From: a virus
DNA length: 64,000 nt
Direction: 5' to 3' (one strand)
Virus record (IMG/VR): IMGVR_UViG_3300021964_000015
Below, piece by piece: positions 33,765 to 56,112 of the stretch (the first letter of the stretch is position 1; each line of letters starts with the position of its first letter). The notes under the pieces are model-generated. The model did no database searches. It saw only the letters and a program-made list of their open reading frames with translations, and was not told where the DNA came from. Both the position numbers and the translations under genes were made by a program.

Positions 33765-33795
33765 CGGCTTATAATACTAATAAAAGATAAATATC

Positions 33796-35306: not shown

Positions 35307-35337
35307 TAGAATTTATTTTATAGAAAGTTAGAATGTA

Positions 35338-37150: not shown

Positions 37151-37155
37151 TTAAA

Positions 37156-37725: not shown

Positions 37726-37755
37726 CCTAGAATAGTTTAATTAACAGGAGTAGAA

Positions 37756-38289: not shown

Positions 38290-38319
38290 CGTTAAAATAT
38301 AAATAGTTGTTTTAGGCTA

Positions 38320-38769
38320 ATGCGTATTAATCCGTTTGCATCTTCGCAAGCTAGTTCTGTGTGGGACAGGGGCAGCAACGTTAGAGGTGGCCGCAGGCCT
38401 CCCTCTAGTGTATCTTCAGGCGGTGGTCGTGGTTCTATGACTGCCGCTGATTTACAAAATGTACGTGGTCCCATTGTGGATGATCGCGGTCCTATGGGAG
38501 GAGGTGCTTATACGGGTGGTCGTGGTTCTATGACCGCAGCCGACTTACAAAATGTACGTGGTCCCATTGTGGATGACCGTGGTCCTGTGGGTGGTCGTGG
38601 TTCTATGACTGCCGCTGATTTACAAAATGTACGTGGTCCCATTGTGGATGACCGTGGTCCTATGGGAGGCCGTGGCCGTGGTGGCTCCAAGCCTAGAAAC
38701 CGTGCAAACAGGAGCCGCGATTTAAAAAGTCGTCGTTTCCAAGAGTTTCTAACATCTTTTTATAGGTGA
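38320..38769 (+). CDS. RG-rich disordered protein with 3 tandem repeats
   Basis: 'GGRGSMTAADLQNVRGPIVDDRGP' x3. Confidence 0.55.
   Translation: MRINPFASSQASSVWDRGSNVRGGRRPPSSVSSGGGRGSMTAADLQNVRGPIVDDRGPMGGGAYTGGRGSMTAADLQNVRGPIVDDRGPVGGRGSMTAADLQNVRGPIVDDRGPMGGRGRGGSKPRNRANRSRDLKSRRFQEFLTSFYR
38422..38668 (+). repeat. three ~75-nt coding tandem repeats
   Basis: Units begin at 38422, 38515, 38590. Confidence 0.9.
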
Positions 38770-38815
38770 ATTAAAAATAGTGCATTAAAATTAATCTGTA
38801 GAGCTTGTAATTTTT

Positions 38816-39097
38816 ATGTCTTACTCTATTAACCTTCCTCAGGCAGCCAATCGCAAACGTGCTTCCTTTGGGCAACTTCGTGCACAGGGCCTGGACGAAG
38901 CAGAGGCAAAACAACTTCTTGGCCAACAGGCAGAGCGTGAATACGGCGGTGGTATGAGCCGTGCCGAACTGCAGGATTTTGAAACTCTCCTTGGCCGCCT
39001 GGAAGGTTCTAAAATGCGTCAGGCTGCTCAATCGAACCGTGCACGTCAGCGCGACACCTTTGCCGCAGGTCTTGCTGGCATGATGGGCAATTTCTGA
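38816..39097 (+). CDS. hypothetical protein
   Basis: Highly expressed codon style; ends 'GLAGMMGNF'. Confidence 0.65.
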   Translation: MSYSINLPQAANRKRASFGQLRAQGLDEAEAKQLLGQQAEREYGGGMSRAELQDFETLLGRLEGSKMRQAAQSNRARQRDTFAAGLAGMMGNF

Positions 39098-39128
39098 TCT
39101 AAAATAAATCAATAGCTCTACGTAGATA

Positions 39129-39314
39129 ATGCCAGTAGACAATAAAGATTCAGGTGCAGAATTTGATCTAAATCGTTATCGGCAAGCAGCTGATGTTGCT
39201 TACCGTTACGCTAAGGATAAGATTAACCGTGAACGATCTACTGGCACTACGGACAGCAAAGATCCTTTTGGTGAAGAACCCAAAAAGAAAACAGATAAAC
39301 AGAAGGAAAATTAA
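39129..39314 (+). CDS. hypothetical protein
   Basis: ORF, operon context. Confidence 0.55.
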   Translation: MPVDNKDSGAEFDLNRYRQAADVAYRYAKDKINRERSTGTTDSKDPFGEEPKKKTDKQKEN

Positions 39315-39316
39315 CC

Positions 39317-39601
39317 ATGCAAGAAGAGCCGTTTTATTTTGAAAGCGCGGAAAATCCTGATCCGTATGATTTATTCTTCGATGAGGATAAAGCGCGTAAA
39401 GCTGCTTCAGCTGTTAAGATCTTCCAAGATGTATCTGTTGGCTCATCTAAAGAAAAGATGAGGGAAGCTGGTACCCAAGAAAGGGAAACTATTGGTAAAT
39501 CAGGTGAAGAACAAAGAAAGTCTGCAGAGCAATCACAGCGTTTCGGCGAAAGCGACGAAGCCCGTGACTACGGCCAAGCACAACGAGCATATCGATATTG
39601 A
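39317..39601 (+). CDS. hypothetical protein
   Basis: ORF, operon context. Confidence 0.55.
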   Translation: MQEEPFYFESAENPDPYDLFFDEDKARKAASAVKIFQDVSVGSSKEKMREAGTQERETIGKSGEEQRKSAEQSQRFGESDEARDYGQAQRAYRY

Positions 39602-40088
39602 GATATTCGATCGTTGGCTAGACAATTTAGATTCACCAACTGAAGAAGCATTTAAATCTTTTTGCGCAGAGAACTTTTCTGTAATTGAATGTTATCTTTA
39701 TGCCAGGTTTTTGCGTTACAACGGAAGCATCACTGGTTGTGACCACTGGTTAAATAAAAATTATCCAAAACCTGACCATAGGAAGGTTTTGTTGTATGAA
39801 ATTGATGAGATGCAAGAAGACATCCGTAAGCTAAGGCAGGATGTTGATAATGGTCTTGTCAAACGTGATGCTGGTGTAGCACGTATTGCATCAATGCAAA
39901 AAGAATTACGTGGCACTATTGCTCAAGTTGAGCTTTCTACTTCTATCAAGGATAGAAAAGGTTTATTGATGGCGGGTGCTGATCGTGCCATCCGTGAACT
40001 AATTACTATCTTCAAAGATGATCCAATTGAAATTCCACTGGAAGAAGCATCAATGAGTGTTTGGTCCCATATGCAGCTAGAAGAATAA
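39564..40088 (+). CDS. hypothetical protein; terminase small subunit candidate
   Basis: Helical/coiled-coil protein upstream of TerL; start uncertain (ORF open from 39492). Confidence 0.45.
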   Translation: MTTAKHNEHIDIEIFDRWLDNLDSPTEEAFKSFCAENFSVIECYLYARFLRYNGSITGCDHWLNKNYPKPDHRKVLLYEIDEMQEDIRKLRQDVDNGLVKRDAGVARIASMQKELRGTIAQVELSTSIKDRKGLLMAGADRAIRELITIFKDDPIEIPLEEASMSVWSHMQLEE

Positions 40089-40106
40089 TTCACGTAGACT
40101 GGTAAC

Positions 40107-40484
40107 ATGAGAAAACCACCTCCGCAACCTCCAGAATATGGAGAAAATATTGCCGGACGTTTATTCGAAGTTGTTCGTCAATTAAATAAAAACCGCGAAC
40201 AATCTGCTGGTATCAAGAAACCTACTCCTCTTGATCCCAAGGTTTCTCGTGGTCAAGAGGTAATGAATGCCTTATTAGATAACAAAGAAAATGAGCAAGA
40301 ACAAAATGCCGCCTCAGCTTCTGGAGTACTTCAAGAAGAAGGAGGCCAAGAAAGAGGACGGCAGCGAGATGTCGGACAAGGAGAAGCGGAAGGCCGCTTT
40401 AGAGAAAGCGAAGAAGTACAAGGAGCAGAAGAAGAATCGCAAGGGCAAGGACGAGAAAGAGGACGAGGACGACGAATGAGTTAG
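40107..40484 (+). CDS. hypothetical protein
   Basis: ORF; contains nested ORF in another frame. Confidence 0.5.
   Translation: MRKPPPQPPEYGENIAGRLFEVVRQLNKNREQSAGIKKPTPLDPKVSRGQEVMNALLDNKENEQEQNAASASGVLQEEGGQERGRQRDVGQGEAEGRFRESEEVQGAEEESQGQGRERGRGRRMS
40291..40479 (+). CDS. small Lys/Glu-rich protein nested in 40107-40484
   Basis: 'MSKNKMPPQLLEYFKKKE'; biased codon use. Confidence 0.55.
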   Translation: MSKNKMPPQLLEYFKKKEAKKEDGSEMSDKEKRKAALEKAKKYKEQKKNRKGKDEKEDEDDE

Positions 40485-40513
40485 TATTTATTTATAACGA
40501 ATGAATACTAACT

Positions 40514-42040
40514 GTGCCTGCTTATCAACATCTTGCTTATAGACGTAATGCACAAGCTGCTGCACGCAGGCAACAAATTAGAGTTCCACGAAACCTTGAA
40601 TCCCTGGAAAAAGCAAGGGATGATTTTGGTTTCTTTTGTGAGTATGTAGCAGATAAACCACCTGCCGAACATCATAAAGAATGGCATCGGCACTTTGTAA
40701 CGCAAGAAGATAGTAGTTGTTTAGTAAAGATTGCTGGACCCAATATTGATCTATTGGCTCCACGAGGTTCAGCTAAATCAACCATCCTTGGATTATTTAC
40801 TGCATGGGCCATTGGTGTACACACCATGGCAAAGAAACCACTACAAATTCTTTACCTTTCTTATACGGTTGATATTGCTCGTTCCAAGTCAGCAACCATC
40901 AAACGAATCATTGAAAGCAAAAGATATCAAGAAGTTTTCCCCAAAGTACGCCTTCTCAAAAACGTAACCAGTAACGAGTACTGGTCTATTGACCATAAGT
41001 TTGCTGGTATTGATACCACAGGTGAAGAGCAATTTACTTTATGCGCAGCGGGCCTCAAAGGTTCGGTGACATCAAAACGTTCTCACCTGGTAATCATTGA
41101 TGACGCAATTAAATCAGCAGCTGATATTGCTAATCCAGATATCCGTAAACAGATGCAGGATAACTGGAATGCAGTGATTGCACCAACCATGTTTGAAGGA
41201 GCACGTGCCATCTGCCTTGGTACACGCTTCCGACATGACGATATTCATTCAACTACTTTTAACCCACAAAACAATTGGATGCAGATCGTGTTATCTGCAA
41301 TCCTTACTGATCCCAAAACAGGGGATGAAGTTTCATACTGGCCAGATATGTGGTCGTTGGATTATTTAAAGGAAAAGAAACGACAAGCACCTATTGCTTT
41401 TTCTTTCCAGTACATGAATCAAATCGTCAGGCAGAATGAATTGTCGCTGGCGCCAGAACTTATTGTTAAAGCTGAGATCTCTACGGAGTTTGACACGCTT
41501 GCTGTAGGGGTTGACCTATCTGCTGGTACGAAAGAGAAAAATGATTATACCGTTATGGTTCTGGGTGGTCGCATCGAGGATCGCATTCACGTTATTGATT
41601 ACCGCAGATTGCGAGTAATGGGTAACCTTGAAAAACTTGATGCCCTCAAGGAACTACTTAATGATTGGTCCATCCTTGGACGCGATGAACAAGGTAATTA
41701 CTTTCCTACTTATTCCACCTGTGATATTTACTCGGAAGCTGTGCAGTACCAGGCATCACTGGAGGCCGACTTCAAACGCGTTTGTTTAAACAATGAAAAT
41801 CTTTATAACTTAAATTGGCATCCTGTCAAAGGATTCCGTGCAGATAAGTTGGCACGTTTCCGTGGTTGCATGGGGTTGTTTGAAGATCGCAAGATTATCT
41901 TCAATCGTTACCGCAACTTCACTGCAATGTTTGAAGAGCTTACCAACTTTGGTGTTAGCAGTCATGATGACTGTGTTGATGCGTTGGTTTGGATGATTAA
42001 CGGATTAATGCGGAAAGGTAAGCTTCAGGTTGATTACTAA
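40514..42040 (+). CDS. terL: terminase large subunit
   Basis: Walker A 'APRGSAKST', Walker B 'LVIIDD', 'GTR' motif, nuclease 'GVDLS'...'HDDCVDAL'. Confidence 0.93.
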   Translation: MPAYQHLAYRRNAQAAARRQQIRVPRNLESLEKARDDFGFFCEYVADKPPAEHHKEWHRHFVTQEDSSCLVKIAGPNIDLLAPRGSAKSTILGLFTAWAIGVHTMAKKPLQILYLSYTVDIARSKSATIKRIIESKRYQEVFPKVRLLKNVTSNEYWSIDHKFAGIDTTGEEQFTLCAAGLKGSVTSKRSHLVIIDDAIKSAADIANPDIRKQMQDNWNAVIAPTMFEGARAICLGTRFRHDDIHSTTFNPQNNWMQIVLSAILTDPKTGDEVSYWPDMWSLDYLKEKKRQAPIAFSFQYMNQIVRQNELSLAPELIVKAEISTEFDTLAVGVDLSAGTKEKNDYTVMVLGGRIEDRIHVIDYRRLRVMGNLEKLDALKELLNDWSILGRDEQGNYFPTYSTCDIYSEAVQYQASLEADFKRVCLNNENLYNLNWHPVKGFRADKLARFRGCMGLFEDRKIIFNRYRNFTAMFEELTNFGVSSHDDCVDALVWMINGLMRKGKLQVDY

Positions 42041-42072
42041 CTTTTAGAATAGAAAAAAATACCAATATTATT

Positions 42073-42369
42073 GTGGGACCTGAATATATTGCAATCGGCA
42101 TTACAGCTGTTGTTTCTGCTGTAACTGGCGGTGGATGGATGGCAACTAAAATACTTGGCCGTCAATCAGAACAGATCCAACAAGTATTTAATTATGTTGG
42201 CTCGCAAAAAAGAAGGATTGACATTTTGGAAAATGACGTGAAGCGTATGCCCCTGGAATACGTATTAAAAGTTGATTTTCTTAGAGAAATCCAACAGATG
42301 CATGACAATCTTAGTCAAATCAACACAAAGCTTGATAAACTAATTGAAAAACTACTGGAAGTAAAATGA
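42073..42369 (+). CDS. membrane-anchored coiled-coil protein (possible lysis accessory)
   Basis: N-terminal TM helix; 'YVLKVDFLREIQQM...KLDKLIEKL'. Confidence 0.5.
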   Translation: MGPEYIAIGITAVVSAVTGGGWMATKILGRQSEQIQQVFNYVGSQKRRIDILENDVKRMPLEYVLKVDFLREIQQMHDNLSQINTKLDKLIEKLLEVK

Positions 42370-42548
42370 CTTACGTCATCGAAGTACAAGAAGATGATAA
42401 CGGTGATTGTTTCATCACGCTTCCCGATGAGGTATTAGAAGACCTTGGCTGGCAAGAAGGCGATGTTTTAAATTATGATTTTCGTGGTGAAGGCATTGTC
42501 ATTACTAAATTGAATGACATCAATGCATATGAAGTTATAGAGGATTAG
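42366..42548 (+). CDS. AbrB/MazE/SpoVT-type DNA-binding protein
   Basis: 'FITLPDEVLEDLGWQEGDVL...GIVITKL'. Confidence 0.75.
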   Translation: MTYVIEVQEDDNGDCFITLPDEVLEDLGWQEGDVLNYDFRGEGIVITKLNDINAYEVIED

Positions 42549-42574
42549 AATAAAAAAATTGGAGATGATTAAAA

Positions 42575-42919
42575 ATGCGTTTTAGTGGATATCAAAATGT
42601 GCCGGGTGCTCCAGGCCAAGTAGCATACCCTGGCATGAACCCAATGATGATGGCTGGTAACCCTAGCTTTGATATCAACCGTGGCGCAGGTGCCCTTGGT
42701 GGACGCTCTGGTGAGCAGCTGAAAAGATTATATGAAGGCGGCACACAACAGAATCAACAACTAAATGAAGAACTACGTCGCCGTGGAATCATGCCCGGTG
42801 GACCGCAACTTCCTTTAGCTTTTGGCATGGGGGGCATGGCACCTATGGGCAACGCTGGTTCGATGACCATGCCAATGACACAAATGCCGATGGGATTCCA
42901 GAATAAAACTGTCTCCTGA
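42575..42919 (+). CDS. Gly/Met/Pro-rich hypothetical protein
   Basis: ORF with upstream TAGAAT and GGAG. Confidence 0.55.
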   Translation: MRFSGYQNVPGAPGQVAYPGMNPMMMAGNPSFDINRGAGALGGRSGEQLKRLYEGGTQQNQQLNEELRRRGIMPGGPQLPLAFGMGGMAPMGNAGSMTMPMTQMPMGFQNKTVS

Positions 42920-42951
42920 AACTGCTACTATTTAAAAAAGGAGAATAATTA

Positions 42952-45228
42952 ATGGCGGACGCTAGAGCCCGGCTTCAAGAAATTATCAATGCCTATCTGG
43001 ATAAAGATAGCAACATTGTTGTTGATACGGGCATTGTTGCGTCCCACGTAGCACAAATGAAACTTTTTGGCATTCGCCAAGGAGTTGAATTCTTTGCAGG
43101 CCAGGATAACTTTGGTGCCCAACGAAAGGACTTTATCGATCGCGTACTAAAGTACAACAAGCTTGATACCCGTTTGGATTCCATCTGGGAATACTTTTTA
43201 TGTGATGGAAAAGGTCTTTTTTACATTCGGCCAACCAAACAGAACTATCGGCTTTACTATTTTCGTGATCACGAATATCGTGCCTATTACAACGTTGATG
43301 GCGAACTTGATGAGGTTGTAATCATCTATAGCTATAAGGTACGTAAAGGCAACGGTTTCGGCGAAGCAATTAATACGACGAGTATTTCAGGTACACAAAG
43401 TACTTATAGCCCTGGAGCAAAACGCTATATTCGTTTATCCATTAAAGGAAGAGAAATTGAAGAAACTCATTCTGATGCAGAGTTAAATTTTGATATGCCC
43501 ACTTATGCCCTAACGGGCAATACAAAGAAGTTAAAAAATAGTCTTGGTTTTATTCCATGCGTTGAGATCATCAACAATGCCCAAGGCTTCTCCAATGAAG
43601 GGGTGGGTGAATTTGACCACATGGCAAATCACATCTGCACCCATGATGATTTAATGCGCACGATGCGCAAGAACATTACCTTCTTTGGTAATCCAACATT
43701 GCTTTCTTCTCGGCCTAAAACCGATTTGATGGAAGCAGGTGGTGATATGTCCGTTCAACGGCCCTCTATTGCTGCTAACTCAGGTTTCATGAGCCCTTCG
43801 CCCATGAGCCGTTCCATGTTTAAAGCTGATCCAGTCAGCCGTGGCATGGATGGTCAGATCAGGGTTCCAAGAGTTATTGCAAACCTGGAACCAAACGATC
43901 GTGTTGGTTATATTGTTCCAGATGCTATTACAGGTGATCAAAACGCATTTGCCCGTCAGTATCGGGAAGAGATCCGTACCGCTCTTGGTGGCGTGGATGA
44001 GTTGTCAATTTCTGCAGGTGTTACTGCAACTGAATACAAATCATTGTTTGGCCGCGTTGCCGCCACATCAAAGAAGAAAGCAAACGCCATTTACACCCAC
44101 GGTATTTGTCGTTGTCTAGAACTTATTATTTATCAAGAAGAGCAACTGTTTAAAACAACACTTGCGGCTGCTGCTGGTATGGAGAAACCAGTTGAATTAC
44201 CTGATGATGCACCACCTGAACAACAGGCTGCATACGAAGATGCATTAAGTCAATATAACGAACAATTGAAGAAACTTATGTTAGCTTGTGTGGAAACTCA
44301 ACAAATACCACCAAGTGTTGTTGGGTTAATTCCTGATGGGGATCTAACTGTTTTATGGCGTTGGCTTGGTCCCGTCTATGAAGATTCCACGCAAGATATT
44401 CTTAACAACTCTATTGTTGTAAGAAACCTTCAGGAATTAGGTGTTGATAGCATTGAAGCACTGAAGTACCTCTTCCCTTCTAAAACGGATGAGGAAAGAG
44501 CCGAGATGCTATCTGGGTTCCCATTCAGGATGGTGAACGAATTGCAGGGTGCTTACTCTCAATTTGCTCGTCTAGTGGGGGGAATGATGCAGACTCCTCA
44601 CCCGCAAGCACCGGATCTACCGATGGCTGCGGATCCCAGATTGGATCTAACACCATATCTGTATCGAACATTAGAAGCCTTACAAAAGGAGATGAGTTAT
44701 GCAGGACGCTACCGTCCAATCGATCCCACAGACGAGCCAAGTTCCGGCAGCGGTGGCTCCGAGCAGCTACGTGGCTCCGGCTCCGGCGCAAGCTCCAGTG
44801 GCAGCACCAGTCCAGTATCAGGTGGGTACCAGTTACCCTCAGGCGGTACCACAGGCAGCCCCCAGCTACCAATCAGCCCCTACGCAGTACGCCCCCCAAT
44901 CCCAACCGGAAGCCCAGGGCAACCCATGGGAATCGGCGTTCAACAAGGTGGTGAATCTGCTGAGCGCACCAGTTCAATCCCCGTTCCAGGGTCAACCGTC
45001 TCAGACGACGCAATACAGTCCAGCCAACTACGGCCAGCTGCCCAGCAACCTGGGTACGCAACAATCGGCTCCGCAGACCTCATTACCCAACCAGGCCTAC
45101 TCGCCCAACTCTTCCCAAACTTCCTCGATTCAATCATTGGAGGACGTAGCGGATCTCCTGGATTGGAGCCCGGAAAGCCGGAACGTGGTAAGCGCGTACG
45201 GAACAGAAGCTCCCGCAATTCTAAATAA
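42952..45228 (+). CDS. portal protein (with long overlapping C-terminal extension)
   Basis: Size and position between TerL and capsid; 'LGFIPCVEI.N', 'SAGVTATE'; AAGGAG RBS. Confidence 0.7.
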   Translation: MADARARLQEIINAYLDKDSNIVVDTGIVASHVAQMKLFGIRQGVEFFAGQDNFGAQRKDFIDRVLKYNKLDTRLDSIWEYFLCDGKGLFYIRPTKQNYRLYYFRDHEYRAYYNVDGELDEVVIIYSYKVRKGNGFGEAINTTSISGTQSTYSPGAKRYIRLSIKGREIEETHSDAELNFDMPTYALTGNTKKLKNSLGFIPCVEIINNAQGFSNEGVGEFDHMANHICTHDDLMRTMRKNITFFGNPTLLSSRPKTDLMEAGGDMSVQRPSIAANSGFMSPSPMSRSMFKADPVSRGMDGQIRVPRVIANLEPNDRVGYIVPDAITGDQNAFARQYREEIRTALGGVDELSISAGVTATEYKSLFGRVAATSKKKANAIYTHGICRCLELIIYQEEQLFKTTLAAAAGMEKPVELPDDAPPEQQAAYEDALSQYNEQLKKLMLACVETQQIPPSVVGLIPDGDLTVLWRWLGPVYEDSTQDILNNSIVVRNLQELGVDSIEALKYLFPSKTDEERAEMLSGFPFRMVNELQGAYSQFARLVGGMMQTPHPQAPDLPMAADPRLDLTPYLYRTLEALQKEMSYAGRYRPIDPTDEPSSGSGGSEQLRGSGSGASSSGSTSPVSGGYQLPSGGTTGSPQLPISPYAVRPPIPTGSPGQPMGIGVQQGGESAERTSSIPVPGSTVSDDAIQSSQLRPAAQQPGYATIGSADLITQPGLLAQLFPNFLDSIIGGRSGSPGLEPGKPERGKRVRNRSSRNSK

Positions 45229-45652
45229 TTATGCTCTCCAGCTGGAAGATATGCTGGATAGTGCTGTTGCCTGGGGTGGCAAAGCACAAGAACTGCTGAA
45301 TGGCTATGCCGAATTCAGTGTTAATGAGCACCAGGAGAACCTGGCATATAACGAGATCCTGACCAATCCCGATGTACTTAGCGATTACACGCTGAAGTTC
45401 TTTGGTCCTGAAGGTCCCTATCCTGTGTATGAGGATGAGGCACAATTGGAAACCCGTGGTTATCCAACCGCACCGATTGATTCTGCCCTGGGTCAATTCC
45501 CTGCTCCTCCTACTGCAGCAGCTCCTCAGCAACCTGAAAACTTCTGGGGCAGCTTTAAGCAACAAATGGATGTGGATCCCAGCCAGGCATGGCGTCTCCT
45601 GAATAACGCTCAGCCTCAAGTGGTTTCCAACAAACTGTTTGTAATGGAGTGA
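44699..45652 (+). CDS. putative scaffolding protein
   Basis: Pro/Gln-rich N-terminus, helical C-terminus; between portal and capsid; strong codon bias. Confidence 0.55.
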   Translation: MQDATVQSIPQTSQVPAAVAPSSYVAPAPAQAPVAAPVQYQVGTSYPQAVPQAAPSYQSAPTQYAPQSQPEAQGNPWESAFNKVVNLLSAPVQSPFQGQPSQTTQYSPANYGQLPSNLGTQQSAPQTSLPNQAYSPNSSQTSSIQSLEDVADLLDWSPESRNVVSAYGTEAPAILNNYALQLEDMLDSAVAWGGKAQELLNGYAEFSVNEHQENLAYNEILTNPDVLSDYTLKFFGPEGPYPVYEDEAQLETRGYPTAPIDSALGQFPAPPTAAAPQQPENFWGSFKQQMDVDPSQAWRLLNNAQPQVVSNKLFVME

Positions 45653-45656
45653 TGCC

Positions 45657-46112
45657 ATGATTCCCGCCCTTTTAGGTGGGCTGGGTGCATTAGGAGGTGG
45701 CGTAGGCGGCTTTAAGCTTGCTGGCCGCTACCTCCAGGATGTACCAGCTCAATTAACAAAAGCAGGTAAAAAAGGCACTCAAAAATTATCAGATGCACTG
45801 CTTAGTGGCGCAGCAGGATTAGATCGCTATGAAGGGCCAGGTGCTGTTGGTACTATGGCAGGAGATCTTCAGAATGTCTTGCTTAAAGGTGCAGATGCAG
45901 CTGCAAACATTCCTGTAGAGCAAATTGCTAAAGGAGCAACCAAAGTTGGTCAAGTCGGCTTAGGAGCCCTTGGTGGAATTGGTGCAGGTCAAGGCTTATA
46001 TAGCATTGGTAATGCATTAATGCCGCAACAACAAGCACTTGATCCTGAATCCTACGGGTCTAGCAACTCCCCTGGTGCACGCTATAAAGCACCTACTATG
46101 CAGTATATGTAA
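45657..46112 (+). CDS. Gly/Ala-rich hypothetical protein
   Basis: Glycine zippers; ends 'DPESYGSSNSPGARYK'. Confidence 0.55.
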   Translation: MIPALLGGLGALGGGVGGFKLAGRYLQDVPAQLTKAGKKGTQKLSDALLSGAAGLDRYEGPGAVGTMAGDLQNVLLKGADAAANIPVEQIAKGATKVGQVGLGALGGIGAGQGLYSIGNALMPQQQALDPESYGSSNSPGARYKAPTMQYM

Positions 46113-46210
46113 GCTTAAAGCTTATTACCTGCTAGAATTTGTTTTAGATAAGACACATGTGTCTTTATCTTTCACCCGATAAAAACACTGACACTGGAGG
46201 ATAAACTAAA

Positions 46211-48200
46211 GTGTTCATTGATAGCTAGTTCAGATCCTGGTAGGTATGTCCCTTCAAGATTTGGTAAATAGCTCCGTGATTACAGTTAAATTTTTCAGCA
46301 ATTTTTCTATAAGAAAGACCTGCTTCTTTTAAAGATTTAATTTGTTTCACGTCATCCGAAGAAAATTTTCTCAAAGATTTCTTCGGCTTTCCTTTACTGG
46401 CAAAACCATTGTTTTTGTAACAACCGTTTTCCCAGGCTCTTGTTAAATTTTCTTGTTTGGTAACGATCTCAAGATTAGCAAGTTGATTATTTCTCTTGTT
46501 GTTATCTTTGTGATCAATCTGTAGGGAAAAGTTACTGGTTCCATGAGAACGCAGATCTAATCCTAAAAAAGCAATTGCCATCAAGACGTGAAGATGAAAT
46601 CTTTTTCTCTTTCCATCTACAAGAACTGAAATACGGTCGTAAACACTGGTGGAACTAATAGGAATCTCTAGAAAATATTCTTGATTATCGGGATCAAGTT
46701 GTTTTTCAAAAGCTTTCCCTTCTTCCGTTAAGTAAAGATTACCAAATCCTGGAACAAGTTTTGGATTCATGTTGTTTATAAACAGGTTTCCAGACTGTAG
46801 CACGCCTCAACTGAACGCTCAACGTTGTCACCTCACCAAGCAATTGATGAGTGCAAACCGGATGAATTCAGGGAAGCCCTAACGTAAAGACGAGGGTAAT
46901 CCTGAGCCAAGCCAATCAAGAACGTGATTGGAAGGTGCAGAGACTACTGGGGGTAACACGATCTTGTTACGTAATACCAGATTCAGCGTCCGGCATCCCA
47001 CAGGGATGAAGAGATAGTCCACCCCTCTAAGAAACTAGAGACCAGGAGAACGATTTTCCAAAGATTTTAGGTGCGGAACTTTATCGTCCTCACCCTGCTT
47101 ATGTCACCGAAATGGCTGTGGAGCCCGTGGTTGTCCACGACTTCACTCGTCAGCCCGGTCAAACTGTTCAGTTAGATCGCTATAAGTTCTGGGGTACCCC
47201 TGGTACGAAGGATAGCCGCGAGCGTATCTCTGACCAGACCATTGGTACTGCCAACAGCCGCAACATCACCAAGGAAAAGGTGCTTGTTGTGCTGAAAGAA
47301 TACACCGGCCCTGCTGATCCGGGTGATCCCACTCAGCCCAGCACCTTCAAAATTGCTCGTGAAACCCTGATTACCGCCCAGCGTCTGCTGCTGGATACCG
47401 GTAACCTGAACATGTTCCACCAGAGCATTGGTTCGCTGACCCTGCTCGATGATTATCGCCGGTGGCGTGATCGTGTGTTCATTGATGAACTTGCCAAAGC
47501 AGAAGCAAACGGTGCTGCCTCCACCACACAAGGCGGTTACTACTTCGCTGGTGCCAAGGAAAAGAATGCTTCCGGTCAAATCACCTATAGCGTTGCTGAG
47601 TACCAAAGCCAAACTCAGCAGTTCCAGGTGCGTACTGACCTTCTGACCGTTGTTAAGGATCTGCGTAAGCGTAACGTTCCTACCTTCGCTGATGGTCTGT
47701 ATCGTTGCATTTGCGATCCCGTCTTCATGATGCATCTGCGTCGTGATCCTGACTTCCGTGAGATCGCTCGTTACGCTGGTACCCCTGGCCAAGGCATGTA
47801 CATGGGTAATCCCATGATGCCTAACAACGCCAGCTTCTACATGGGTCCCCAGGCTGGTCAAGGTTACTTCCTTGCCGGTGAGCCGGTGATGCCTACTGGT
47901 GTTCAGTTTGAAGGTGTGAAGTTCTTCGAATCGACCAACTTCCCCATCAAGAACGTCAACGCTTCGTTCGATGCTGGTTCCACCTACACTTCCCAGGAAG
48001 TTGCCCAAGGTTACTTCTTTGGTCCTCAGTCGATTGGTGTTGGTATCGGCGGCCCGAACGCTCAGGTGCTCATCAACAACAACGACGACTTCAGCCGCTT
48101 CATCATCCTGATCTGGCAACTGTATGCTGGTTTTGAAATCCTGAACAAGGACTTCGTTACCACCGCGTTCAGCTTCATCCAAGACGATGGTACCGTCTGA
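46211..48200 (+). CDS. major capsid protein, spliced: exon 1 46211-46222 (GTG TTC ATT GAT), exon 2 47049-48200; 387 aa, MFIDNDFPKILGAELYRPHPAY...
   Basis: GGAGG at 46196-46200; exons join in frame; strong highly-expressed codon bias; position after portal/scaffold. Confidence 0.85.
46223..47048 (+). mobile_element. group I self-splicing intron (826 nt) with HNH ORF in L1
   Basis: 5' exon ends in U, intron ends in G; P aattcagggaa 46865, Q aatcctgagc 46898, R gtgcagagacta 46935, S aagagatagtcc 47009; P1, P3, P7, P8, P9, P10 pairings all form. Confidence 0.93.
46225..46770 (-). CDS. intron-encoded HNH homing endonuclease (antisense to host gene)
   Basis: 'HLHVLMAIAF...IDHKDNNKRNNQLANLEIVTKQEN' plus C-terminal HTH. 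Confidence 0.88.
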   Translation of the reverse strand: MNPKLVPGFGNLYLTEEGKAFEKQLDPDNQEYFLEIPISSTSVYDRISVLVDGKRKRFHLHVLMAIAFLGLDLRSHGTSNFSLQIDHKDNNKRNNQLANLEIVTKQENLTRAWENGCYKNNGFASKGKPKKSLRKFSSDDVKQIKSLKEAGLSYRKIAEKFNCNHGAIYQILKGHTYQDLN

Positions 48201-48237
48201 TAATTAATCCATACATTTAAATTACTGGAAAAGATAA

Positions 48238-49032
48238 ATGACCTATTTGTCCGCTAAGAAAATCTACCCAGGTAACTGGGCAGAGCCCCTCAACGGTTGG
48301 TACAAGAACATTGATACCAACGATGACGGCAGCAACAATAACTCCAAGGGTGGCCCCACTTGCGTGCTGGCAACTCCTGGCTACCGTTACTTCCAGCAGC
48401 GTGGTTACGTTCCTGTCACCAACACTTCTGGTGGCGGTGCTATCTCCTCCGGCAGTGTTATCGTTCCTTCCCCTTATCGGAATGACGATACCCGCACTGA
48501 CATCACCGGTATGGTGATCTCCGGCAGCAGCACCCTTCCTGCCTATGTGTATCGCGCAACTGTTTCCGTTGCTTCTGGCTGGGGTGATGGCCGTGTTGCT
48601 TCTGGTGTGTATGCCGCAACCGGTAACATCATTACCTTCGGTCCTGGCCTGGAATCCAACGCAGGTGTTGGCGCAGCTGTTTCCCAAGCAAACCTGCAGT
48701 CCACCACCTCTGGCAGCCAGCCCGGTGAGATTTATTTCGCTGGTGGTTCCGCTGCTTACAGCGCTGTTCCTCTCCTGACTGCTACCGGTGCTGCTGGTAA
48801 TAGCGCAGGTAAGGTTTACCGCGAAGTGACTGCCGCTACTACTTACAACGTTCAGTCCCGTACTACCCTGACCGGCACCACTGCAGGCGGCGGTTGGTAC
48901 ATCTCCAGCGCTGATTCCACTGCTGGTCGCACTGGTTATCTGATCGTTGAAGTGTGCTACATCCAACCTGATGTTGCTCCTGGTTACGAAGACATCGACG
49001 GCTACCTGCTTGGCCGTGTTGTCTCCCCGTAA
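48238..49032 (+). CDS. abundant structural protein (capsid decoration/minor capsid candidate)
   Basis: Directly after MCP, same strong codon bias. Confidence 0.6.
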   Translation: MTYLSAKKIYPGNWAEPLNGWYKNIDTNDDGSNNNSKGGPTCVLATPGYRYFQQRGYVPVTNTSGGGAISSGSVIVPSPYRNDDTRTDITGMVISGSSTLPAYVYRATVSVASGWGDGRVASGVYAATGNIITFGPGLESNAGVGAAVSQANLQSTTSGSQPGEIYFAGGSAAYSAVPLLTATGAAGNSAGKVYREVTAATTYNVQSRTTLTGTTAGGGWYISSADSTAGRTGYLIVEVCYIQPDVAPGYEDIDGYLLGRVVSP

Positions 49033-49075
49033 TTAAAGAGATAAGTTAAACTAAGACCAGTAAATTACTGGTCTT

Positions 49076-49504
49076 ATGACAACTACTCCTTCGATGCTTT
49101 ATCAGCACAAAAAAACAGGTGCACGTGTCAAGGTTGTAAGCGAATGGGATAATGGCGATTGGTTTATGGTCGAAGATCAGGATGGTCGCCTTTTCACTGC
49201 TTATAAAACTGAAATTACACCTGACGAGGCTGCAACAAAAACTGTTAAAACTCTTCAGGTAAAAGATAAAGCAGCAAAAGAAGAACCTCGCACTTTTCCC
49301 CCTGATAATCGGTTAAACATTAATGGTGCAACACCTCAAATGATCGCTGATCATATTAAAGGTATTGGACTTAAAACAGCTAGAGAGATTAAAGATCTTC
49401 AGATGTCCTTATCGGGTGAAAGGTTTAATAATCTCGAACAGTTAAAACAGATTAAAAGGGTTGATTGGGACGCAGTTCTTGCAGCTGATTTAATCAGAGT
49501 TTGA
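49076..49504 (+). CDS. helix-hairpin-helix (ComEA-like) domain protein
   Basis: 'RLNINGATPQMIADHIKGIGLKTAREI...RFNNLEQL'. Confidence 0.75.
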   Translation: MTTTPSMLYQHKKTGARVKVVSEWDNGDWFMVEDQDGRLFTAYKTEITPDEAATKTVKTLQVKDKAAKEEPRTFPPDNRLNINGATPQMIADHIKGIGLKTAREIKDLQMSLSGERFNNLEQLKQIKRVDWDAVLAADLIRV

Positions 49505-49514
49505 GGATATTAAT

Positions 49515-49536
49515 CCCCTGGGCAACCAGGGGTTTT
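49515..49536 (+). terminator. Rho-independent terminator
   Basis: cccctgg-gcaa-ccagggg-tttt. Confidence 0.8.
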
Positions 49537-49594
49537 ATCTTGCAAATTCTTTTAATTCAGTGCATTTATAATAAAAAACAAACGGAAATAAACG

Positions 49595-50056
49595 GTGCAG
49601 CTATCTGATTTTGATAAGAGTAGAGTCCGGTATCACCTGGGCTACTTCACGGTTTCTGTTCCAGCAGGTGATTATGCCAGGCTGGAAGAAGCAATGAATA
49701 CAATTCCTGATTCGTATTTTTACGATAAGGTAGCTATTCAAATTGGTCGTTGTGATACGGCTGAAAAGAAAACAGAAGTTGCAACCTCACCTTCCACCCG
49801 TTTGGAAAGTATTGCTGGTGACGTTGATCGTACGATTAGATCTAGCAATGCAAAGGAAGCTTTAAAGGTTTGGGACGAGATCTATCTCTACGAAACCAAT
49901 CGTTTGGCACAAATTCTTTACGTACCAAACTACAAAGATCCGTTCCAAGCCAGATATCGTTATGAAAGATCTGGTGCTGAATTTATCCAGGCATTACCTG
50001 GTCCTGCCGACACCGCCGTTGGCTCCCGCATGTATTTAATGGAGAATTGGAGGTAA
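49595..50056 (+). CDS. head-tail adaptor candidate
   Basis: Small helical protein after capsid block, 'RVRYHLGY'. Confidence 0.45.
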   Translation: MQLSDFDKSRVRYHLGYFTVSVPAGDYARLEEAMNTIPDSYFYDKVAIQIGRCDTAEKKTEVATSPSTRLESIAGDVDRTIRSSNAKEALKVWDEIYLYETNRLAQILYVPNYKDPFQARYRYERSGAEFIQALPGPADTAVGSRMYLMENWR

Positions 50057-50058
50057 TC

Positions 50059-50922
50059 ATGCCTAGTTTTACTGGTGCACGTGAATTAGCAGGCCTGTTT
50101 GGTTTGGGGGGAAATTTAGCCACGGGCGCGGGTTTATTTGCAGGTCCTCAACTTTTCATGCAAGGTCAATCCGGTTCGTTATTAGATCGTAGTGTTCAAA
50201 ACTTACCTGGAATTATCCCAGACCAACGGAATGATCTAGGAAGGAAAACTGGAAATGCAATTAGCAATGAACTTCAATACATTACCAATCAACTAGGCCA
50301 GGGCTCCATGCCTTACGGCGGAGGCCTTGGTATCAACATGCCCAGGGGAAAAGGCAAAGGTGGACAAGGCCGAGGGTTGCGTTTCAATAGAGGCCAGTCA
50401 TCACCTGATGTAGCAGCACCAGGTAGTGCACAAGAAACCGGCATGTATGGTCGTTACATCCCAGGTAGTGCACAAGATCGTGCGTACATGCAAGAAGCAT
50501 CACGTGTTGCTCAGTTGACCGCACAGGATCCTGAACTAAAGCGTTACGCTGATAAACGTCAACTTGCTGTTGCACCTGGCGCAACACCTGCACAAATTCA
50601 ATCTGCAGAAGATATCGGGATGGCAATCTGGGCTCAAAAGTATGGTCAACCTGGTGGTCTTGCACGTGCTGTAAAACCTGGTCAGGCAGGATATGATGTC
50701 ATTCAACAAACCTTGATTGGCCAAGATGCAGGTAATGCAGCACGTCAAGGAATGGGTTATCAAGCACAATCACAAATGATTCCAACCCCACCTCCTGGTT
50801 TAGGTGGTCCGCAAGGCCTTCCTTCTGTCAACATGCAGCCTACTTACGGTGCAGGCGGGCTAGAAGTTGATCCAGAAAGATTGAAAAAATTCCAGGCATT
50901 AATTAATCAAGCAAAAGAATAA
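50059..50922 (+). CDS. hypothetical virion protein
   Basis: GGAGG RBS before ATG 50059. Confidence 0.6.
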   Translation: MPSFTGARELAGLFGLGGNLATGAGLFAGPQLFMQGQSGSLLDRSVQNLPGIIPDQRNDLGRKTGNAISNELQYITNQLGQGSMPYGGGLGINMPRGKGKGGQGRGLRFNRGQSSPDVAAPGSAQETGMYGRYIPGSAQDRAYMQEASRVAQLTAQDPELKRYADKRQLAVAPGATPAQIQSAEDIGMAIWAQKYGQPGGLARAVKPGQAGYDVIQQTLIGQDAGNAARQGMGYQAQSQMIPTPPPGLGGPQGLPSVNMQPTYGAGGLEVDPERLKKFQALINQAKE

Positions 50923-51007
50923 TATCTTGGCATTGCGTAGCATGTAAGACCAGCCTGCTGGACAAGAATCTTTGATTCACGGGAGCCAGTGTTGTTGCTT
51001 TATCACA

Positions 51008-51124
51008 ATGATTCTCTGCCCTAATTTTGTTAAACGCTTAGCAGCCACTGTATCCCTGGTTGCAATTACGCAAACAGTATTTACACCTGGTCTCAAAGCA
51101 CAGTCAAATTGGGTAGCTGAATGA
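51008..51124 (+). CDS. 38-aa signal-peptide-like ORF (not in ORF track)
   Basis: MILCPNFVKRLAATVSLVAITQTVFTPGLKAQSNWVAE. Confidence 0.4.
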   Translation: MILCPNFVKRLAATVSLVAITQTVFTPGLKAQSNWVAE

Positions 51125-51134
51125 GGCAATAAAA

Positions 51135-51863
51135 ATGACAGAACGCGAATTACTACAAAGCTACGTTTCAAGACCTGCCATCCAGAACGCATTGCGAGTT
51201 ATTCGTTTTGCGGAAGGTACTGAACGTGGCGGACCCGATTCCTATCGCGTCATGTTTGGCGGTGGCTTGGCACCTGATCTAAAGCGGCATCCAGACAAAG
51301 TTATTGATGGAGGACGCTATAAAAGTGCAGCTGCTGGTGCATACCAATTCATGCCCTTTACCTGGGAGCGACAAGCAAAAGCACTAGGCTTATCTGATTT
51401 TGGTCCACAGAATCAAGATCTTGCTGCTACACGTTTGTTGCGTAATCGCTTGATGCCTATCGGTGGTTTATCAACCCTTGAAAAAGAAGGTTTTAGCCAG
51501 CGTGTATCCTCTGCACTAGCACCAGAATGGGCTTCTCTTCCCACCGAAAGTGGTGAGAGTTTCTACGGCCAACCTGTTAAAAAACTTGCTGATCTCCAGA
51601 AAGTTTTTGGTCAGCCACAAGAAACACAAACGTTTGGGGCCACAACTCAACTTACAAAAAAACAAGAAAGAAAATTAAAGAAACAGCTTCAAAATCCCCT
51701 GGGTTTACCTGTCAGTATCAACATTAATTTATCTGGTGAAGAAGAGGCAAAACCTGAAGCCCGTTCTTTTCTTGATACAATGAAAGGACAAGTGATGCAA
51801 TCACTATTCCAGCAACGTCAACCGTTTGGCCTACAAGAAGTATTAGGCTTGCTTGGTCAATAA
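51135..51863 (+). CDS. lambda R-type lysozyme/transglycosylase
   Basis: 'IRFAEGT...SAAAGAYQFM..TW...DFGPQNQD...EWASLP...YGQP'. Confidence 0.88.
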   Translation: MTERELLQSYVSRPAIQNALRVIRFAEGTERGGPDSYRVMFGGGLAPDLKRHPDKVIDGGRYKSAAAGAYQFMPFTWERQAKALGLSDFGPQNQDLAATRLLRNRLMPIGGLSTLEKEGFSQRVSSALAPEWASLPTESGESFYGQPVKKLADLQKVFGQPQETQTFGATTQLTKKQERKLKKQLQNPLGLPVSININLSGEEEAKPEARSFLDTMKGQVMQSLFQQRQPFGLQEVLGLLGQ

Positions 51864-51926
51864 CCTTTATAATGTCTATAAAAAGGAAGTAGAACATTGT
51901 CTTCAAGTTCTCTTGTATTTTTTGTT

Positions 51927-52517
51927 TTATTTGGGTTTTACGTGGCTACCTCCTTTGCCATCATGCCGTTCTTTTGAAAATGCTTTGTCAAGGGGCCATT
52001 CATTATTAAGGCGTTTTTGCATTGATTGAGGAGATATTCCAACTTCTTTAGCCCAGTCGGCAATGCACATTGTCTTACCTTCAAAGGTATAAAGTCTAGT
52101 AGCACGCTTCCCTCCTCGGTTGCGTGTCTGCTCTTTTCTTGTAGCCCATCGACAATTTTCTTTGCAGTAGTTTTTATCGTTTTCAATACGCTCTAGTTCC
52201 ATCTTGGGATCTGGTTTTTTACCCATGTCTGCTAGGAACACCGTAAAGTCTTCCCAAGAAGGGTCGTAGGTTATACCACGGGCGCCATAACGTTCATAAT
52301 GGGTTGTGCCAATACAATTGCAACGGTTTTTCATTGCGCACCATGAACCGTATTCTGGTGTTTTATCTCTGTTCCCACCATGTTTGAAGGAAGCGCAGTT
52401 TTTTGAGCAATAGACATACCCTCTATCTCGCAAACGCTTACGATGCCAAGCTGCGGTATTCCCTTGGCGCTCATAAAACTTGCCACAGCAAGCGCACTGA
52501 AAAATTGTTTGTGCCAT
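51927..52517 (-). CDS. free-standing HNH-type homing endonuclease
   Basis: 'EYGSWCAMKNRC...YGARGI...W..F..F..DMG..P....LERIENDKNY..ENCRWAT..EQ..N'. Confidence 0.85.
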   Translation of the reverse strand: MAQTIFQCACCGKFYERQGNTAAWHRKRLRDRGYVYCSKNCASFKHGGNRDKTPEYGSWCAMKNRCNCIGTTHYERYGARGITYDPSWEDFTVFLADMGKKPDPKMELERIENDKNYCKENCRWATRKEQTRNRGGKRATRLYTFEGKTMCIADWAKEVGISPQSMQKRLNNEWPLDKAFSKERHDGKGGSHVKPK

Positions 52518-52566
52518 TAGAATAAGAGAAGTTTTCGGAGGCCCCTGTCAAATTAGCAGAGACAGG

Positions 52567-53358
52567 GTGTTTAGTCAAATATCCAGTACTAGCACGAACA
52601 AGCAACCGCTCCTGGTTGATAGGCCGCTTTTTGATTCGGTTCGTGTAACCACTCAAACTGTTGGTAGTTCTACTGCCAATACACTTTTTGTGCAAGGTGG
52701 ACAAGCACCCTCTATCCTCGTGGATATGGATGCTGCACTACAAGAAGATAACAACAGTGGTGGCGTGGTTGATTCAATTACCATTACTCGTAATGACTTC
52801 TATCGTCCTGCTGATTACACCGTAAATACAGTCACATCTGGCAGTGTAATTTCTCTTGTTAGCGGTCAAGTTGTTTTTGTTGCTGAAACAGGTGTTGTTA
52901 CTCCAGCTCCTGCAAGTGGCTACGGCTATTACACCTATACAGGTGCAACTACCCTGACAGGTGTTAATACATCTTTTGAGTACTCAGGCGGATCTTCTTC
53001 AGGTTTCCTCTATAACGGTGTAGCCTGGGGAGATCAACCCAACGTTACCTTTGTCTTCTACCACACCCGTGGTACGACAACACCTATCCCTGCATCGGGT
53101 GACTACCGTGTACTCTTTGCAAAAACAGTGCCAGCAGGTAGTGGTACTGTTGATTGCTCTGATCTCCTTCCTCAGCTTGCAACACCTGTTGTTGGCGCAG
53201 GTAACACAAATGGCCTTGGTCCCACTGCGCCTCTACGCAACAAAGGCATCTACCTGGAGCGTGGTGATCGCATTTACGTTGGTGTGTTCCCTGATGGTTT
53301 GAATATTTCTGGTTACACACCAGGTGCTCACGTAACCGCACAAGGCGGATTCTTCTGA
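52567..53358 (+). CDS. structural (tail) protein with relocated start
   Basis: 'SSTSTNKQPLLVDRP...GIYLERGDRIYVG...AQGGFF'; Thr/Ser/Gly-rich. Confidence 0.6.
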   Translation: MFSQISSTSTNKQPLLVDRPLFDSVRVTTQTVGSSTANTLFVQGGQAPSILVDMDAALQEDNNSGGVVDSITITRNDFYRPADYTVNTVTSGSVISLVSGQVVFVAETGVVTPAPASGYGYYTYTGATTLTGVNTSFEYSGGSSSGFLYNGVAWGDQPNVTFVFYHTRGTTTPIPASGDYRVLFAKTVPAGSGTVDCSDLLPQLATPVVGAGNTNGLGPTAPLRNKGIYLERGDRIYVGVFPDGLNISGYTPGAHVTAQGGFF

Positions 53359-54908
53359 TGCCAAAGAAGAGTGGAAGCTCTTTTGGTAATTTTGACCGGG
53401 CGAAGAAATTTGATCCTCGTCCGGTTAAACCTATTACGACAGAATTTTCCAGAGGATCAGTACCTGATTCACTCTATGCAGTAAATAGAGAATCGGCCTG
53501 GTCTCGTTGGCGTAGAGGATATGAACTTGCTACGGCAACTTTTTATAATAACGACTATACATATCGTTTTCGTTACGAAATACCTAACACCATATCCAGT
53601 GGCAACCCTGCGACTACAATCTCAGGCGCTTTCGTTGGTTATCCCACAAGCAACAAAGAGCTTGGGATGCAGTGGGCTATTTGGAGATTCGCTGGCTCTA
53701 TTCGTACCGATCAACTTACTGATCCAGTAAGTAGTCAAAACTTATTCATTGAATCAGTTACAGAAGATGCAAACTTCTGGTATGTAAAGCTAGCGGGCAC
53801 CTGGAGCGCATCTAATCCATTACCTTCTCCTTTTTACATTCCTGTTGCAGGAGAACCCAATGGATTAAAACCAGCTAATACAGAAATCTTTGAAGACCGT
53901 ATTCTTACGGTTAGTGGTGAAATTATTGATCAAGATACAATCAACCCAGCCACACAAACGCGCTACGGCTACGTACAAGCCGTTGTAGTGGCCATTAACC
54001 AGGACACAGGTATCCTTACCTTCAAGAAGGCTGGATCCGTGCAGGTAAGCCCTGACGGGGCTTTTATAACACCTTCTCCAATCGGCTTTACTCCAGGGAG
54101 ATTTCTTAATTCTGGTTCGCGTTACTCTTGCACCTGCCAAGATTTCACACGTAGGGAATATGCATATCTAAGTTCAAAAGGTGATTCAAATAGGCGGCAG
54201 TTTCCACGCACAAGTTTGTCCACCCTGAAACCAGGACGTTTTGAAATAACCAAACGTGATGGAATTATTGATAACTCCAGCATGACTAAATCAAATCAAA
54301 ATAGATCCTTGGAAGTTACATCGCCTGATAACTTTGGTTTGAACTATGAAGTAACGGATAATGCTCCTACCGATCGAAGGTCAACAAGAGATAATCCAGG
54401 GGTATATGCAGATTTTGGTGCAACGTATGTAAGAAGCACAAGCAATATTTCTATCCGTGGATCAACTCCAGAAGGTTTACCTGTTTTTGAAGATTACGCA
54501 TCAGTCACGCAAACAACTGACGCAAACTCTATTGAACAAATTACGGTTACAGCAGTTAACGACACCTGGACCCCACTCCTAGATGAGTTGCGTTACTGCA
54601 AACATATCTATGCATTGAAATTTAGAGATAATGTATTCCCACCTGAACCATCCGATTTCCCAGTAGGGATTGAAAGCATGGCTGAATGGGAGCAAAAGTT
54701 AGTTTCAAAATCAGAGAAGGAACAGGAAAGCATTAAAGATTTCATGCAGACCAGGAATGCTTTATCAAAAATGGATGTTCCTCCTTATAACTGTCAATCG
54801 CCAATGATTTTTCCGATGATACAAAGGTTGTTTAACTTTGCAACCGATCGTATCTTGCTTGAAAACTTCGTTATGTTTGACAAGAACGGAAATGAATATT
54901 CACCTTAA
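53358..54908 (+). CDS. hypothetical protein with split SWIM-like Zn finger
   Basis: 'YSCTCQDF' ... 'YCKHIYA'. Confidence 0.55.
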   Translation: MPKKSGSSFGNFDRAKKFDPRPVKPITTEFSRGSVPDSLYAVNRESAWSRWRRGYELATATFYNNDYTYRFRYEIPNTISSGNPATTISGAFVGYPTSNKELGMQWAIWRFAGSIRTDQLTDPVSSQNLFIESVTEDANFWYVKLAGTWSASNPLPSPFYIPVAGEPNGLKPANTEIFEDRILTVSGEIIDQDTINPATQTRYGYVQAVVVAINQDTGILTFKKAGSVQVSPDGAFITPSPIGFTPGRFLNSGSRYSCTCQDFTRREYAYLSSKGDSNRRQFPRTSLSTLKPGRFEITKRDGIIDNSSMTKSNQNRSLEVTSPDNFGLNYEVTDNAPTDRRSTRDNPGVYADFGATYVRSTSNISIRGSTPEGLPVFEDYASVTQTTDANSIEQITVTAVNDTWTPLLDELRYCKHIYALKFRDNVFPPEPSDFPVGIESMAEWEQKLVSKSEKEQESIKDFMQTRNALSKMDVPPYNCQSPMIFPMIQRLFNFATDRILLENFVMFDKNGNEYSP

Positions 54909-55755: not shown

Positions 55756-56112
55756 ATGTTTTGCAACCAGCATGAGCCGCTTGCCCTGCTAGTTGAATTA
55801 ACACCTAAACTTGCCAAAAAACGTTTCCGACAAAGTATATACCAAGCTTGGGATAATAAGTGTGGGTATTGTGAAGGAGTTGCTACAAGCCTTGATCATA
55901 TTATTCCTCGCTTTAAATCTGGTTGTTCTAACCGGAACAACCTTGTTCCTGCTTGTTGCCGATGCAATGCTAACAAGGCATCAGCCGACATGGAAACCTG
56001 GTACAAACAACAAGATTTCTTTAGTGAAGAAAAGTTGAATAGAATAAAAACCTGGATGAAACCAGATGAGTTTAGCCTCGTCGATTTTAACGCATATAGA
56101 AAAGCATCATGA
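55756..56112 (+). CDS. HNH endonuclease (CxxC...HNH...CxxC type)
   Basis: 'CGYC...SLDHIIPRFKSG...NNLVPACCRCNANK'. Confidence 0.88.
   Translation: MFCNQHEPLALLVELTPKLAKKRFRQSIYQAWDNKCGYCEGVATSLDHIIPRFKSGCSNRNNLVPACCRCNANKASADMETWYKQQDFFSEEKLNRIKTWMKPDEFSLVDFNAYRKAS

Follow-up and report, generated by a model that had tools for sequence, protein, structure and literature searches.

A homing-endonuclease-like cassette that probably entered the 5' end of a conserved cyanophage gene and supplies it with a new start

Fungal mitochondrial mORFs make gene hybrids, as in atp6 of Allomyces macrogynus and in atp6, atp9, cox2 and nad3 of Glomus (PMC3630166). A mORF brings in a foreign C-terminus and leaves the native one as an orphan; it is the 3' end of the gene that is replaced (PMC3630166). 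T4-like phages harbor free-standing endonucleases with intronless homing, among them SegF, SegG and MobE (reviewed in PMC2988022). Genes in pieces have also been described, with mobE in nrdA of Aeh1, mobA in gene 60/39 of T4, and a seg-like gene in gene 43 of phage 25 (PMC2988022). In the literature searched, we found no published phage case of 5'-end replacement.

We analyzed a 64,000-nt stretch of viral DNA (the window; IMG/VR record IMGVR_UViG_3300021964_000015), which represents a relative of Synechococcus phage S-EIVl. Sequence comparisons make it highly probable that, in this S-EIV1-like cyanophage, a gene for a 263-aa protein was invaded at its 5' end by a homing-endonuclease cassette that is free-standing and faces backwards. 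The features of the locus, in window coordinates, are as follows.

51868-51873, plus strand: native -10 element TATAAT, orphan; same element and register in empty-site alleles and S-EIVl
51883-51889, plus strand: SD-like AAGGAAG in the native leader, orphan; leader conserved among 48 empty-site alleles
51897-51906, plus strand: native TTG start and first 3 1/3 codons, orphan; blastn homology to relative L004 stops at 51906
51897..51977, plus strand: 26-aa read-on ORF from the orphan start (ORF listing); overlaps the endonuclease ORF at its 3' end, in antisense
51907-52587: inserted cassette, 681 nt; missing from L004; junction ambiguity 1 nt
51927..52517, minus strand: 196-aa HNH-like putative homing endonuclease ORF; phrog_3377, 1.7e-43
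52518-52523, plus strand: cassette -10-like TAGAAT; abuts the endonuclease ATG; near-invariant across all cassette types
52537-52541, plus strand: SD-like GGAGG, directly 5' of the hairpin
52543-52567, plus strand: 7-bp hairpin with 11-nt loop; arms 52543-52549 and 52561-52567; covariation
52550-52558, minus strand: candidate extended -10 TGCTAATTT within the hairpin loop, assigned to the endonuclease gene
52567..53358, plus strand: 263-aa conserved virion-module gene with cassette-supplied GTG and a 4-residue N-terminal extension (ORF listing)
52573-52578, minus strand: -35-like TTGACT, 17 nt upstream of the minus-strand -10
52579-52596, plus strand: donor-derived copy of native codons 1-6, with ATA replacing the start; 52588-52607 matches relative L008
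52597-52607: interval with the right-hand recombination breakpoint, from comparison of identity to L008 and to L004

On reading nt 51500-53200 together with the ORF listing, we found each element at both starts where the preliminary description had placed it. The arrangement of an orphan start followed by a cassette start is more than chance.

In layout, mORFs are the closest published analogue of this cassette. In both cases, an endonuclease gene occupies the terminal part of a host gene along with foreign, largely synonymous terminal codons, and the native terminus persists next to the element as an orphan that is not expressed (PMC3630166). Here the in-frame foreign copy lies at 52579-52596 and the orphan at 51868-51906. 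The phage cassette is a mirror image, replacing the 5' rather than the 3' end, and because of this it must also bring signals for the start of transcription and translation. Its ORF is antisense to the host gene and has a candidate promoter of its own, whereas a mORF is in phase or co-oriented with its host gene. The host here is a phage and the protein HNH-like, whereas mORFs are mitochondrial and of the LAGLIDADG or GIY-YIG families; moreover, the duplication here amounts to only 3-6 codons.

The cassette resembles the free-standing elements of T4-like phages in lying between or inside phage genes with a patchy distribution in relatives, in its inferred spread through a double-strand break and co-conversion of flanks, and in having its own promoter, here a candidate one, and an RNA structure near the gene start (PMC2988022). 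At this locus we found sporadic presence among close relatives, an uncoupled history, and no intron or intein. In contrast, T4 elements usually lie between genes, use natural polymorphism at a distant cut site, and have not been reported to carry a replacement start for the neighboring gene (PMC2988022). As in the genes in pieces, the endonuclease gene lies within a coding region and the insert supplies start signals for what lies downstream; there, however, both pieces are translated and reassemble (PMC2988022). The upstream piece here comprises 3 1/3 codons, can be dispensed with and is absent from many occupied alleles; what the cassette restores is a protein of full length.

A further comparison comes from the window itself. 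A group I intron (Rfam RF00028, 91 bits) lies at 46770-47041, just before the major head gene (region 46225-47111), with a 192-aa minus-strand ORF (46225..46803) beside it. This capsid intron and that of mycobacteriophage LittleE share with the cassette a backwards-facing endonuclease with its own promoter, about four codons into a late gene (PMC3706429). The intron restores the reading frame by splicing, whereas the cassette is without a ribozyme and uses a new start. The two elements also carry unrelated endonuclease ORFs.

The host gene encodes a protein 69% identical to AHV82236 of S-EIVl. Searches of Pfam, PHROG and NCBIfam for its function gave no match, and its matches in the ESM Atlas are all hypothetical viral proteins. 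Its AlphaFold model, of poor quality (pLDDT 57), resembles only generic beta-sandwich or jelly-roll folds (Z ≤ 6.8). The label 'structural gene' comes from position alone, downstream of the terminase and capsid genes. The gene is probably essential. Upstream of the insertion site, the neighboring gene (51135-51863; compare nt 7034-7941 of L001) is not conserved. In the window it encodes a 242-aa lysozyme-like protein (phrog_90); S-EIVl has instead an unrelated 219-aa protein and an 83-aa ORF, and many IMG/VR relatives have neither the window's nor S-EIVl's upstream gene. A hot spot of gene replacement directly adjoins the homing site.

The boundaries of the insert were defined by comparison with L004, a relative that lacks the HNH gene and whose 263-aa homolog is 97% identical. 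In blastn alignments, window positions 51906 and 52588 both map to position 3010 of L004, and hence the insert is 51907-52587, or 681 nt. As the preliminary description had anticipated, TTG TCT TCA runs continuously into AAC AAG CAA CC in L004. The upstream start is likewise continuous with the gene in 48 distinct empty-site alleles and in isolate S-EIVl, where the endonuclease is absent, the gene opens with ATG and codons for SSTSTGK, and the TATAAT and leader resemble window nt 51868-51896 rather than 52518-52566. The insertion point, earlier put at about five codons, is 10 nt (3 1/3 codons) inside the native ORF. On the left, nt 51867-51906 correspond to the native promoter, leader and start of L004, with 100% identity over the last 40 nt before the junction. 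On the right, ATA at 52579 is followed by codons that keep the conserved SSTSTNK N-terminus. The similar peptide in different codons noted earlier is indeed there: in codons 1-6, 7 of 18 nt differ from L004, all of them synonymous except at the start. Nucleotides 52588-52607 are identical to cassette-bearing L008 at 20/20 positions and to L004 at 18/20; from 52608 on, the window is 100% L004-like and identity to L008 falls to 13/20. This switch places the right breakpoint within 52597-52607, and codons 1-6 therefore arrived with the cassette. Overall, the cassette shares 85% nt identity with that of L008, and the rest of the gene 76%.

Consistent with the earlier statement that no ribozyme core is present, an Rfam search of nt 51700-52800 at E ≤ 1 returned nothing but a chance miRNA match. 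The capsid group I intron was readily detected in the same window. With this negative result, and an ORF antisense to the host gene, the insert does not lie inside an intron or intein.

Most plus-strand copies of the motif YTAKAAT in the morphogenesis region (33769-52517) lie within ∼10-30 nt of plus-strand ORF starts, often with a spacing of 27-30 nt, and the orphan copy has the same spacing. Across the window the motif is depleted, with 19 matches versus 37 expected. This pattern suggests that YTAKAAT is a late-promoter element of the phage itself. The 26-aa read-on ORF is probably accidental; it is not conserved, as its start or the entire orphan is gone in other lineages.

The cassette carries a control region that faces both ways. 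TAGAAT is nearly unchanged in all four leader types, though the leaders otherwise differ. Downstream, the last paired base of the hairpin is the G of the GTG start. Covariation supports the hairpin, with 96.7% of cells paired versus 27-56% when the partner is slid. Double changes occur at two pairs (G-C to A-U and U-A to C-G), and G-U intermediates pair in the plus-strand RNA only. The hairpin is present in both the MFE and the centroid fold, although the 5' UTR as a whole folds no better than shuffled sequence (z-score, -0.55). Conserved positions in the loop are those of TGnTAnnTT on the minus strand. This putative minus-strand -10 scores under the threshold of the simple scan, and a consensus sigma-70 scan of nt 51000-53500 called no promoter at all; consequently, promoters were assigned here from conservation among relatives.

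Window-type cassettes have ATA where the old start codon was (ACG in L101), and in every one of them the 12-nt interval between GTG and this position is in frame and free of stops. Type B has a leader 2 nt longer, which puts GTG out of frame, and retains the native TTG, while type C has an ATG start with GAGGAG. These differences, together with loss of the old start in the window type, support GTG at 52567 as the start codon. The cassette had been proposed to bring its own promoter, RBS and N-terminus. The layout bears this out, as do the scar alleles described below; the promoter is a candidate called from conservation.

We surveyed alleles of the locus in IMG/VR. A scan with the 263-aa protein yielded more than 510 relatives, 80 of which were fetched, and a second scan with the endonuclease as query yielded 61 loci. 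Combined, they gave 90 distinct 5' regions, a set enriched for occupied sites. Among these, 48 are of the empty-site type, 31 have the full ORF (occupied), 4 have a partial ORF (partly deleted), 2 are scars, and 5 are too short to class. In the first scan, which is unbiased, 15 of 80 loci have a cassette or its remnant. The relatives are metagenomic contigs, and their viability is assumed. Even among close relatives with 97-99% protein identity, the site is empty (L004), occupied (the window) or scarred (L002/L003).

The scar alleles are informative. In L002/L003, whose protein is 99% identical to that of the window, the endonuclease ORF is gone except for its first six codons, and the whole leader (TAGAAT, GGAGG, hairpin and GTG) is kept. 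The deletion measures 624 nt, and its end points, 51874 and 52498, meet at a 2-nt microhomology. A leader of the 52518-52567 type, which the preliminary description had regarded as a potential problem if present in relatives lacking the HNH gene, occurs in a few endonuclease-less relatives (L002/L003, L071 and L037). All of these retain the first 6-17 endonuclease codons, which identifies them as deletion scars rather than refutations of the insertion. In these scars, as well as in partly deleted L010 and L013, the cassette leader is the sole start. Hence, the cassette start must work.

Left junctions vary among occupied alleles. In the window, what survives of the native start reaches 10 nt into the ORF; the corresponding lengths are 11 nt for L005 and the L008/L012/L014 group, 14 nt for L095/L096 and 7 nt for L112/L113. 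In L098/L099 and L086 the -10 element alone remains, in L121 the orphan is decaying, and in L049, L068, L077 and others no remnant of the native start is left. Instead of separate repair events, deletions at a later time could account for these different end points. The orphans have the codons of their local background, as seen in empty alleles from the same lineage (L024 for L008, L025/L026 for L013, and L040/L052 for L112); the codon copy carried on the right, unlike the orphan, is cassette-specific. In L103, a longer apparent orphan start (ATG and about a dozen in-frame codons) lies ∼50 nt beyond the endonuclease stop. The gene of L103 is only 43% identical to that of the window, yet its cassette leader is of the window type.

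The cassette is both site-specific and mobile. In the endonuclease-query scan, the endonuclease divergently adjoins the 5' end of the 263-aa gene in 47 of 61 loci, and several of the others are cut by the contig end. The association holds where the gene is only 35-43% identical. Although the two genes are ∼50 nt apart, their pairwise identities are uncorrelated (rho 0.045, 378 pairs). For example, L093 and L116 have genes 99% identical and endonucleases 72% identical, the latter belonging to different cassette types with different leaders. In this pair, either one endonuclease was replaced by another or a single background was invaded twice. With identities of the endonuclease uncoupled from those of the gene, we conclude that the cassette moves horizontally between backgrounds. 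Collectively, these comparisons establish insertion, orphaning of the native start, a cassette-supplied start, site specificity and horizontal spread.

How the cassette moves can be proposed from its layout. Expression of the endonuclease would be driven by the extended -10 promoter that lies in the hairpin loop, and the protein would cleave empty alleles at about codons 3-5. On its right side, the broken end would then invade a cassette-bearing genome in the first codons and produce a short co-conversion tract ending within 52597-52607. Indirect signs of such cleavage and copying are the mosaic breakpoint in this interval and the orphan ends, which lie 7-14 nt into the ORF. Repair of the left end may depend on the neighboring gene. 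With a shared upstream gene, the end would be repaired by homology, leaving no orphan; with an unrelated one, end joining would seal the break and the orphan would extend as far as the cut. Among the surveyed loci, the upstream gene indeed varies greatly. In the simplest view, the occupied allele would be immune through its split site and replaced conserved leader, and not through synonymous changes.

This last point bears on an idea in the preliminary description, that the carried N-terminal codons were recoded specifically for resistance to the cassette's own endonuclease. The 7 of 18 changed nucleotides, silent except at the start codon, would fit, as would conversion of the start codon itself to ATA in window-type cassettes. 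However, the same codon choices occur in empty alleles such as L051 (GTG TCC AGT ACT) and L059, and in cassette types B and C the first codons are the same as in empty alleles such as L006, L027 and L070. Moreover, insertion alone already splits the site and replaces the conserved leader. We therefore regard specific recoding as unlikely, and favor immunity through the insertion itself.

What the ORF encodes is pertinent to a second alternative. From the alignment and the model, the 196-aa protein has an N-terminal Cys-rich finger, a central PacI-like core and a small C-terminal HTH. PHROG families annotated as HNH endonuclease match it at 1.7e-43 and 1.2e-34. The HNH models of Pfam and NCBIfam gave no match to the protein or to 25 homologues, PDB searches by sequence (single sequence and profile) gave none, and Foldseek with the model returned nothing at E ≤ 0.001. 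The model has a pLDDT of 79, and its top VIA-align match is the HNH enzyme PacI (3m7k_A), albeit a weak one (Z 5.8, rmsd 3.1, 79 residues); the DNA-binding domain fold of I-TevI matches with Z 2.9. In the homologue alignment, N113, N121 and N133 are invariant, as is R110. The latter occupies what we take to be the position of the canonical catalytic (general-base) His, in a tentative register versus I-HmuI that serves as a lead only. The tentative 'HNH' label is drawn from PHROG models and a weak PacI-like predicted fold. Elsewhere in the window, a second HNH gene (55756-56112; PF01844, 5.5e-07) is co-oriented with a 742-aa gene and overlaps its start. That gene looks core rather than mobile, since S-EIVl has an HNH nuclease gene, AHV82240, at the same relative position.

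Could the ORF instead encode a small accessory protein that binds DNA and has zinc-finger and HTH domains, the gene having spread by ordinary recombination with the duplicated start as a by-product? The lack of a Pfam HNH match in 26 of 26 homologues, which show only weak zinc-finger and HTH matches, and the apparent absence of the canonical His (by the tentative I-HmuI register) point that way. Against this, the ORF keeps strictly to a single site even among phages that are very divergent, it occurs sporadically and some copies are decayed, and its history is uncoupled from that of a gene 50 nt away. The strength of the PHROG HNH-endonuclease matches, the 927 phage homologues, several of them annotated as HNH endonuclease, and PacI as the top fold match also argue for an endonuclease. 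We consider the accessory-gene explanation quite improbable and retain that of a homing endonuclease.

Alternatively, the cassette might be ancestral at the locus, and the empty alleles products of repeated precise loss. The orphan and carried copies form short direct repeats, which could support deletion, and deletion derivatives exist. But the deletions seen are imprecise and retain the cassette leader, whereas the native leader and start are conserved in all empty alleles and in S-EIVl. Furthermore, native starts recur as orphans beside the cassette with lineage-specific codons, and the endonuclease tree is uncoupled from the gene. Ancestry of the cassette is thus very improbable, and we continue to read the locus as one of insertion.

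That the orphan is the real start, with the insert removed or bypassed at the RNA level by looping out through pairing of its ends, is scarcely credible: a 10-nt, 90% complementary pair does bracket the insert (51905-51914 with 52524-52533) and the insert length is a multiple of three, but the ribozyme search was negative, the pairing is missing in relatives with other left junctions, eight pairs of such size occur within these 800 nt, and the orphan is wholly absent in many occupied alleles and in all scars. We rejected looping out by long-range RNA pairing, as the pairing is not conserved and its size is that expected by chance.

These data indicate that a selfish endonuclease needs neither intron nor intein to colonize the extreme 5' end of a phage gene that is probably essential; it rebuilds the start signals. 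The allele series is unusually complete, with empty, occupied, decaying and scar alleles to represent every stage of a homing cycle. As the scars show, a visit leaves the gene with a promoter, leader and start codon that are permanently exchanged, and start replacement is thereby a concrete way in which phage late operons can undergo regulatory turnover and become mosaic. With its many natural target variants and its four cassette types, the series also offers a data set for the specificity of an HNH-like family that is widespread among phages (927 records). More tentatively, and with the odds somewhat against it, the cassette may be a self-contained start-replacement module that needs homology on one side only and can home to an essential late gene, at its 5' end, regardless of the upstream neighbor. 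In this proposal, one-sided homology would suffice because the first codons, a structured leader and a promoter facing both ways all come with the cassette. If this is true, such cassettes would be general agents of promoter and leader turnover, and of upstream-gene shuffling, in phage late operons.
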